Origin: a virus
Taxonomy: Duplodnaviria; Heunggongvirae; Uroviricota; Caudoviricetes
IMG/VR virus record: IMGVR_UViG_641736116_000027
DNA length: 36,109 bases
Direction: 5' to 3' (one strand)
Both the position numbers and the translations under genes were made by a program. This document shows, piece after piece, positions 8,544-9,366 of this stretch. The notes below the pieces were generated by a model. That model did no database searches and was not told the DNA's origin. It worked only from the letters and a program-made list of their open reading frames with translations. Position 1 is the stretch's first letter; every line of letters begins with the position of its first letter.

Positions 8544-8680
8544 TGTTTGAGTCTTATATGGCAGAACGTCTTCGCCACCGCTGGATGCGCCTGCGCTTAT
8601 ATCGTTTTCCTGGTTCTGTTTTGACCGATTACCGGATACTGAAGAATTACGCCAAAACACTGAAAGGAGCTGCCGCATGA
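8540..8680 (+). CDS. ylcG: YlcG-like small protein (46 aa)
   Basis: [46 protein letters not shown]. Translationally coupled to the rusA stop and to the next gene's start. Confidence 0.55.
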
Positions 8681-9366
8681 ATACCCAATATTTACAGTAT
8701 GTCCGCGAGCAACTCATTGTGGCTACCGCTGATTTGAGCGGAGCAACGAAAGGACAGCTTGAAGCCTGGCTGGAGCATGCACAATTTGATACTGGTACAT
8801 ACAAACGAAAGAAGCCGCGCATTCTGGATGAGGTAACTGGCAGGATGATTACGCTGGATAATCCGCCGATTTCCGGTAAGCAGTCGTACGCAAAAGGTTC
8901 ATCCATTGCACTGGTCAGCCAGGTTGAGTTCTCAACCTCGTCATGGCGCCGCGCGGTTCTGTCTCTCGAAGAACATCAGAAAGCGTGGTTGCTGTGGAGT
9001 TACAGCGAAAGTGTTCGCTGGGAACATCAGGTCACCATAACGCAGTGGGCATGGAGCGAGTTTAAGACTCTGTTGGGTACCAGGAAAATTGCAGGTAAGA
9101 CACTGGAACGTTTGAAGAAGTTGATCTGGCTGGCGGCACAGGATGTGAAGAACGAGCTGGCAGGGCGTAAGACCTATGAATACCAGGAGCTGGCATCACT
9201 GGTGGGAGTGACATCAAAAAACTGGTCTGAGACATTTACTGAACGCTGGGTTGCAATGAAACACATTTTTCTACAGCTTGATAGCCAAGCTTTATTGCTT
9301 TTAACGAAAACACGTTCAAAACAAAAGACCACATTTTCACAGCAAGATATTGCAAAACTGGATTAA
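8677..9366 (+). CDS. putative late-gene antiterminator (Q-like by position), 229 aa
   Basis: Sits in the position of Q, between rusA/ylcG and the terminator hairpins and lysis cassette. It has no cysteines, so it is not lambda-Q-like. The family assignment is by synteny only. Confidence 0.45.
   Translation: MNTQYLQYVREQLIVATADLSGATKGQLEAWLEHAQFDTGTYKRKKPRILDEVTGRMITLDNPPISGKQSYAKGSSIALVSQVEFSTSSWRRAVLSLEEHQKAWLLWSYSESVRWEHQVTITQWAWSEFKTLLGTRKIAGKTLERLKKLIWLAAQDVKNELAGRKTYEYQELASLVGVTSKNWSETFTERWVAMKHIFLQLDSQALLLLTKTRSKQKTTFSQQDIAKLD

Follow-up and report, generated by a model that had tools for sequence, protein, structure and literature searches.

Assignment of a prophage gene to the phage 82-type Q antiterminators, with its probable late promoter and leader, in DNA of the Escherichia coli O157:H7 type

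Three families of Q antiterminators are named, namely Q82 (PF06323), Q21 (PF06530), and lambda Q (PF03589); lambda Q and Q21 have been judged analogues only, and the mechanism of Q82 has been named a priority for further work (PMC9388147). The biochemistry of phage 82 Q comprises loading at a Q-binding element (QBE) as well as at the paused complex, stimulation by NusA, and readthrough of terminators (PMC4914094; PMC12360218). In the late promoter pR' of phage 82, the QBE is located between the -35 and -10 hexamers (PMC4914094), a TG extended -10 motif precedes a -10-like pause element (PMC5001585; PMC3326312), and a GCC at +15-17 is accompanied by a pause at +25/+26 with U as the terminal base (PMC5001585). 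The gene considered here occupies 8677..9366 on the plus strand of a 36,109-nucleotide (nt) stretch of Caudoviricetes DNA (IMG/VR record IMGVR_UViG_641736116_000027), the whole of which is called the window. With a probability of roughly 95%, it encodes a phage 82-type Q antiterminator (Q82 family, PF06323) in a lambdoid prophage like the one beside icd in E. coli O157:H7.

The open reading frame (ORF) starts with ATG and specifies 229 amino acids, the stop codon being counted in its coordinates. The Pfam model PF06323 (Phage_antiter_Q) matches the product, hereafter window Q, with E=1.4e-94 and 316.3 bits over a cutoff of 25, residues 4-220 falling on positions 1-217 of the 220 in the profile. 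With this full-length match at 316 bits and 2780 homologues found at E<=1e-3 in a set of 5.8 billion proteins, the frame is a genuine gene, not one open by chance. Likewise, PHROG 304 ('anti-termination protein Q-like') matches with E=1.5e-108. In a megablast search of phage records, all 690 nt align at 98.4% identity with GenBank X92588, which is titled 'Bacteriophage 82 orf33, orf151, orf56, orf96, rus, orf45, and Q genes' and whose matched feature, CAA63332, is the 'phage 82 Q antiterminator' of 229 residues. The two proteins are identical at 225 of 229 positions without a gap, and the substitutions in window Q versus phage 82 Q (Q204E, K211R, T218A, and D224N) are all C-terminal. In O157:H7 genomes with the identical segment, annotation by the Prokaryotic Genome Annotation Pipeline (PGAP) has the product as 'bacteriophage antitermination protein Q' (WP_001097228.1); no NCBIfam model matches it. 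Judged by its sequence, window Q is the well-known Q of phage 82, already known, routinely annotated, and without anomaly.

The first 9.4 kb of the window match at 100% a prophage beside icd in E. coli O157:H7. A 1014-nt segment comprising Q and its leader recurs in 695 E. coli records at an identity of at least 99%, and the identity is 100% in all the top matches listed and in many O157:H7 chromosomes.

A preliminary description, made from the letters of this DNA, had reported a cysteine-free protein of 229 residues at 8677-9366 in the Q slot between ylcG and the terminator hairpins and lysis genes. The ORF listing and the residue count (no cysteine, four histidines) agree with the first point, and the NCBIfam match to YlcG, the terminator scan, and the holin, endolysin, and Rz genes on the 3' side agree with the second. 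It had further proposed either a divergent long Q family or a different kind of late regulator, to be decided by a hidden Markov model search against Q families, and that search returns an unambiguous match to the named family PF06323. The protein does indeed belong to a long Q family; 'divergent' or unclassified does not fit one that shares 225 of 229 residues with phage 82 Q. The second proposal, in which a late-promoter activator or a sigma-like factor merely sits in the Q slot, finds no support and is extremely unlikely, given the 98% identity to a protein for which antitermination was reconstituted in vitro, the full-length Q82 Pfam match, and the arrangement 3' of Q, where a constitutive-looking promoter is followed by terminators as in an antitermination layout and not an activator layout.

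The absence of cysteine is best viewed within the family. The Q82 alignment consists of window Q and 49 full-length cluster representatives with 20-63% identity (n=50), drawn from 1.84 billion representative proteins among which 172 clusters were found at E<=1e-3; these 172 clusters, defined at 50% identity, make the Q82 family a coherent group. Y109 is its sole invariant residue, and R10, A16, W104, W126, L152, Q155, W191, D202, and L206 are conserved in at least 90% of the members. No cysteine column is conserved among the 50, the maximum, in the column of S108, being 31 of 50. Both window Q and its closest cluster representative are devoid of cysteine, and so is phage 82 Q, as none of its four differences from window Q involves this residue. 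In an 11-member alignment of the lambda Q family, the four cysteines of the zinc ribbon (lambda C118, C121, C144, and C147) are invariant. As read from these alignments, the lack of conserved cysteine is a trait of the Q82 family, which is without the zinc ribbon of lambda Q, and the preliminary argument that a cysteine-free protein lacks the zinc motif of lambda Q was sound for the protein and for its family. The notion that the missing cysteines signify a damaged or unusual Q was considered and rejected, phage 82 Q and another family member being cysteine-free as well.

These data also bear on the view that window Q is a lambda-type Q (PF03589) degenerated by loss of its zinc ribbon, and hence a member of the lambda Q family. 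This is very unlikely. PF03589 has no match in window Q at E<=0.01, no significant pairwise similarity to lambda Q is found, and a sequence search of the PDB with window Q gives no match at E<=0.01. The four zinc-binding positions are absent, no cysteine column is conserved in the family, and the 172 clusters stand as a group of their own with at most a distant common ancestry. A comparison of the family profiles gives a weak match. The lambda-family profile was built from 11 phage sequences and 120 database proteins, and hhalign places Q82 residues 74-200 on lambda Q residues 64-193 with P=2.7e-4 and a probability of 42%, which is itself too low to speak for membership; a reversed-profile control gives P=0.35. 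The confident part, Q82 163-200 on lambda Q 151-193, is the helix-turn-helix segment after the zinc ribbon. In global mode the same alignment is not significant, and hhalign against single sequences of lambda Q or of QuuD, the Q protein of prophage DLP12, is uninformative.

An AlphaFold2 model of window Q from the 50-member alignment is confident (mean predicted local distance difference test score 87.9, predicted template modelling score 0.77). Residues 3-17 form a helix at the N-terminus, and residues 20-80, which include a small beta hairpin, are poorly predicted; the helical core spans 82-228, its last part being a long helix at 180-228. The best structural match is that between the predicted helical core and the crystal structure of lambda Q. 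A fold search of BFVD returned one family member and otherwise noise. In lambda Q, residues 61-113 and 153-207 form the body and residues 114-152 the arm (PMC9388147). We tentatively propose, at slightly below even odds, that Q82 is a distant structural relative of lambda Q, in which the core (~74-228) would correspond to the 'body' with its helix-turn-helix, an alpha-helical hairpin (~115-162) would replace the zinc-ribbon 'arm', and the poorly predicted N-terminal 80 residues would take the role of the N-terminal segment of lambda Q, which forms a nozzle at the RNA exit channel. If so, the three 'unrelated' Q families would include at least two homologous ones, and a concrete model would be available for the one Q family without a solved structure. 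A lambda-Q-like core in Q82, if shown, would bear directly on the relationships among Q families raised in PMC9388147. This predicted link is possibly new; it is the only item here worth following up, and it outweighs the assignment of Q itself.

The second family from which window Q has to be separated is Q21. The preliminary description had contrasted the 229 residues of window Q with an '82/DLP12-type Q' of about 127 residues, and this premise is wrong, as window Q is itself of the phage 82 type (225/229) and the protein of 127 residues is QuuD of the DLP12 prophage of E. coli K-12, which matches PF06530 (Q21 family) with E=3.5e-53. PF06530 has no match in window Q in the Pfam search, and window Q shows no similarity to QuuD (BLASTP E=8.3; hhalign probability 0.1%). 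The confusion is understandable because phage 82, DLP12, and the window share one nin block up to the stop codon of ylcG. The block ylcH-ybcN-ninE-ybcO-rusA-ylcG is common to the three, with a mean column identity of 93% in the three-way DNA alignment, and the divergence of DLP12 from the window and phage 82 sets in precisely at the stop codon of ylcG, also the start codon of Q82 (window 8677; K-12 DLP12 3871). Beyond it, DLP12 has quuD of the Q21 family, whereas the window and phage 82 have Q of the Q82 family. Read from this alignment, one nin module has been joined to Q genes of two families, and the border is a sharp lambdoid mosaic junction at a gene boundary.

The gene order in the window is ybcN-ninE-ybcO-rusA-ylcG-Q-leader-holin-endolysin-Rz. 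The last gene of the nin-region module, ylcG (8540..8680, plus strand), encodes 46 amino acids and matches NCBIfam NF033498 (YlcG_phage_expr, E=5.1e-23) and PHROG 2705; profile matches identify RusA, YbcO, NinE, and a YbcN/NinB-like protein on its 5' side. The ATG of Q overlaps the ylcG stop codon in ATGA at 8677-8680, with GGAG lying 10 nt 5' of the Q start. Upstream of the ylcH/ybcN block, at about 7128-7155, stands a 10-bp inverted repeat (GTCACCGGAG ... CTCCGGTGAC) that is conserved in DLP12 and phage 82. X92588 labels it a 'possible regulator-binding site' beside a putative promoter, and it could equally be a terminator hairpin.

Downstream, the end of Q overlaps a predicted late promoter of the 82 type. 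The pR' at 9350..9378 (plus strand; a match of the sigma70 type, 9 of 12 in the promoter scan) has a -35 hexamer TTGCAA (9350-9355), a 17-nt spacer AACTGGATTAAAAATCA (9356-9372), and a -10 hexamer TATATT (9373-9378); the -35 hexamer lies within the last codons of Q, and the stop codon of Q within the spacer. This spacer is expected to carry the QBE, the assignment and extent of which we infer. The probable start site is A9385, 7 nt after the -10 hexamer, from which the window reads AAATCTGATATTTTGCCAATGTTGTA. Counted from this base, the initial transcribed region with the sigma70-dependent pause element (9385..9410, plus strand) has TG at +6/+7 (9390-9391), TATTTT at +9..+14 (9393-9398), GCC at +15-17 (9399-9401), and the pause at +25/+26, which corresponds to T9409/A9410. 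The segment 9350-9410 thus appears to fit each published feature of the 82 pR'.

The elements are also found in related loci. With a 7-member Q alignment as the search model, 78 IMG/VR loci with Q proteins 76-100% identical were located and compared with the window, giving 79 sequences and 34 distinct leaders after the exclusion of two further loci that had no anchor. Across the 34, TTGCAAAACTGGATT is nearly invariant, in a part that overlaps the coding sequence, and TG(A/G)TAT is kept in every one and in all leader types, including that of phage 434. The promoter and the pause element are conserved among the related loci, and the terminator that follows them varies in sequence and is always present: past about +17 the 34 leaders fall into several unrelated types, each with its own hairpin and T-run at the corresponding place, within about 60 nt.

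Two intrinsic terminators were found in the window leader by the terminator scan, both on the plus strand, with scan hits of a hairpin and T-run at 9434-9460 and 9548-9564. The first (9434..9469) consists of a 12-pair stem, AAGCCCGAGGTT/AGCCTTGGGCTT, followed by TTCTGTTTC, and would stop the uninduced pR' transcript at roughly +80. The second (9548..9574) reads GCCAGC-TACAT-GCTGGC and then TTTTTTATTC. Both hairpins form in the minimum free energy fold of the leader, which has a z-score of -3.7 against shuffles. Among leaders of the window type, stem variants of the first terminator keep their pairing (from G-C through G-U to A-U) and one locus is changed on both sides, and the second terminator stands at the same offset in 41 of 41 (the window and 40 IMG/VR loci). 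Rfam at the gathering threshold finds nothing in the leader (9367-9690), its only matches in the window being the ALIL pseudoknot and IS009, and a search for tRNA genes in the window found none.

The opposite strand of this region also has promoter-like sequence. The minus strand at 9342-9355 reads TTGCAATATCTTGC, which fits the CII-site consensus TTGYN6TTGY and overlaps the -35 hexamer of pR'; at the equivalent position, the genome of phage 434 (OL657226) has an annotated CII site and paQ -35. A second minus-strand match at 9403..9376 (TTGGCA, 16 nt, TAAAAT; 10/12) lies over the initial transcribed region of pR'. Antisense control of Q may be possible in such an arrangement, but the prophage apparently has no cII gene.

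The mechanism proposed for the window is the published scheme of phage 82 Q, carried over on the 98% identity. RNA polymerase holoenzyme would initiate at pR', a constitutive late promoter overlapping the 3' end of Q. Rebinding of sigma70 to the -10-like element with its TG extension, at +6..+14, would be followed by a pause of the complex at +25. Q that has bound its site in the spacer DNA of the promoter would load onto the paused complex with the help of NusA and stay with the polymerase, making it resistant to pausing and to both intrinsic terminators of the 300-nt leader. The holin, endolysin, Rz, and morphogenesis genes would then be transcribed, and pR' would give only a short terminated RNA when Q is missing. 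The identity and family of the protein, the gene order, and the promoter, pause, and terminator sequences at their expected positions are direct observations; activity of Q in the strain of the window would follow by analogy.

Three points weigh against the reading of the gene as a phage 82-type Q at work in its prophage. Function is transferred by identity, and the four C-terminal substitutions relative to phage 82 Q may count in that transfer. The promoter and pause elements were assigned against the verbal descriptions in the papers and not by a template alignment, X92588 ending at the Q stop codon, and their placement should be read accordingly. Finally, the prophage of the genomes with the same segment has no immunity or N region, which bears on the expression of Q in its host.

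The last point leads to a further alternative, in which Q is an intact but silent relic: early transcription would never reach it in a defective prophage, it would be without a role in the host, and the genes for lysis and morphogenesis would remain off. This is a substantial possibility, with the odds somewhat against it. In the genomes that share the segment, a truncated O is fused to int and xis, the cI, cro, and N region being absent; P, ren, emrE, a serine recombinase gene, and IS1203 come next, in an order slightly unlike that of the window. IS1203 and the foreign genes emrE and the serine recombinase are inserted upstream, and all that lay between xis and a truncated ylcG is missing from a sister version of the prophage. 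On the other hand, the ORF is intact, as are the promoter and both terminators, the Q-plus-leader segment is preserved across the 695 records, and the pR' of the window could be acted on in trans by a Q82-type Q from a co-resident lambdoid phage. Moreover, the alternative concerns expression and not the identity of the protein, which remains that of a phage 82-type Q.

The genes that follow the leader are those of lysis. The holin gene (9688..9993, plus strand) is LydA-type (Pfam Phage_holin_3_3, E=8.2e-22), with an ATG start at 9688 according to PGAP and a TTG start at 9676 in the ORF listing, and is predicted to be the first late gene under Q control. The endolysin gene (9980-10456, plus strand) is annotated as glycoside hydrolase family 24 in identical genomes, and the Rz spanin gene (10453-10914, plus strand) matches Pfam Phage_lysis with E=5e-53. 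Inside Rz, in another frame, an ORF of 60 amino acids (10673-10855, plus strand) has an N-terminal lipoprotein-type signal and is placed like rzoD (the Rz1 spanin) within rzpD of DLP12.

The left end of the window, 1-6400, is defective, with an integrase gene at 1-1143 (minus strand) and then a truncated O, followed by P and ren; an immunity or N region is absent. Its inserts include an IS3-family element at 3378-4591 with the ALIL frameshift pseudoknot at 3659-3775, a gene for an EmrE-like transporter of the small multidrug resistance type at 4654-5007, and a serine recombinase gene at 5252-6379. Near the right end, in or beside the tail-fibre region, IS009 (RF02111) has a full-length Rfam match at 35871-36069 (plus strand) with 229.5 bits over a gathering threshold of 117.

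The assignment in itself adds little, as a Q82-type late switch in O157:H7-type prophages is already given by standard annotation. It does indicate the cis elements, an 82-type pR' with a pause at +25, that would control lysis and morphogenesis, and, by implication, the prophage of the window could be cross-activated by a co-resident phage that has this type of Q. It also offers a useful correction: the Q of phage 82 is a cysteine-free protein of 229 residues in PF06323, QuuD of DLP12 belongs to the Q21 family, and only the upstream nin module is shared.

Among the known systems, the Q21 family, which includes DLP12 QuuD and AlpA of P. aeruginosa, is a separate Pfam family with proteins about 100 residues shorter than window Q, and it works without NusA (PMC12360218), whereas Q82 is stimulated by it. 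Lambda Q (PF03589; PDB 4MO1, 7UBN) shares with Q82 its function, its position in the genome, and the kinds of cis elements, namely the QBE, a sigma-dependent pause, and a terminator, and both proteins need NusA for efficient action. The two differ in that the zinc ribbon of lambda Q (114-152) carries four cysteines and window Q has none; the pause is at +25 in phage 82 and at +16/17 in lambda (PMC5001585), and the binding site is occupied by lambda Q as a monomer and, it is thought, by 82Q as a dimer (PMC4914094; PMC9388147). Phage 434 stands within the same family. Its Q (OL657226), labelled 'Q82-like' in the curated genome, has 90% DNA identity to window Q, and the -35 hexamer, spacer, -10 hexamer, and TG-extended pause element of its pR' are conserved as in the window, but its leader diverges after about +17 and is followed by another terminator and other downstream genes. 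The closest system is phage 82, whose Q has the same length of 229 residues, a start codon that likewise overlaps the stop codon of ylcG, and the same genes upstream (orf151/ybcN, ninE, orf96/ybcO, rus, and orf45/ylcG). Window Q differs from it by four conservative changes in the C-terminal helix, and by its setting, phage 82 being a free phage and window Q residing in a defective prophage of the O157:H7 type.
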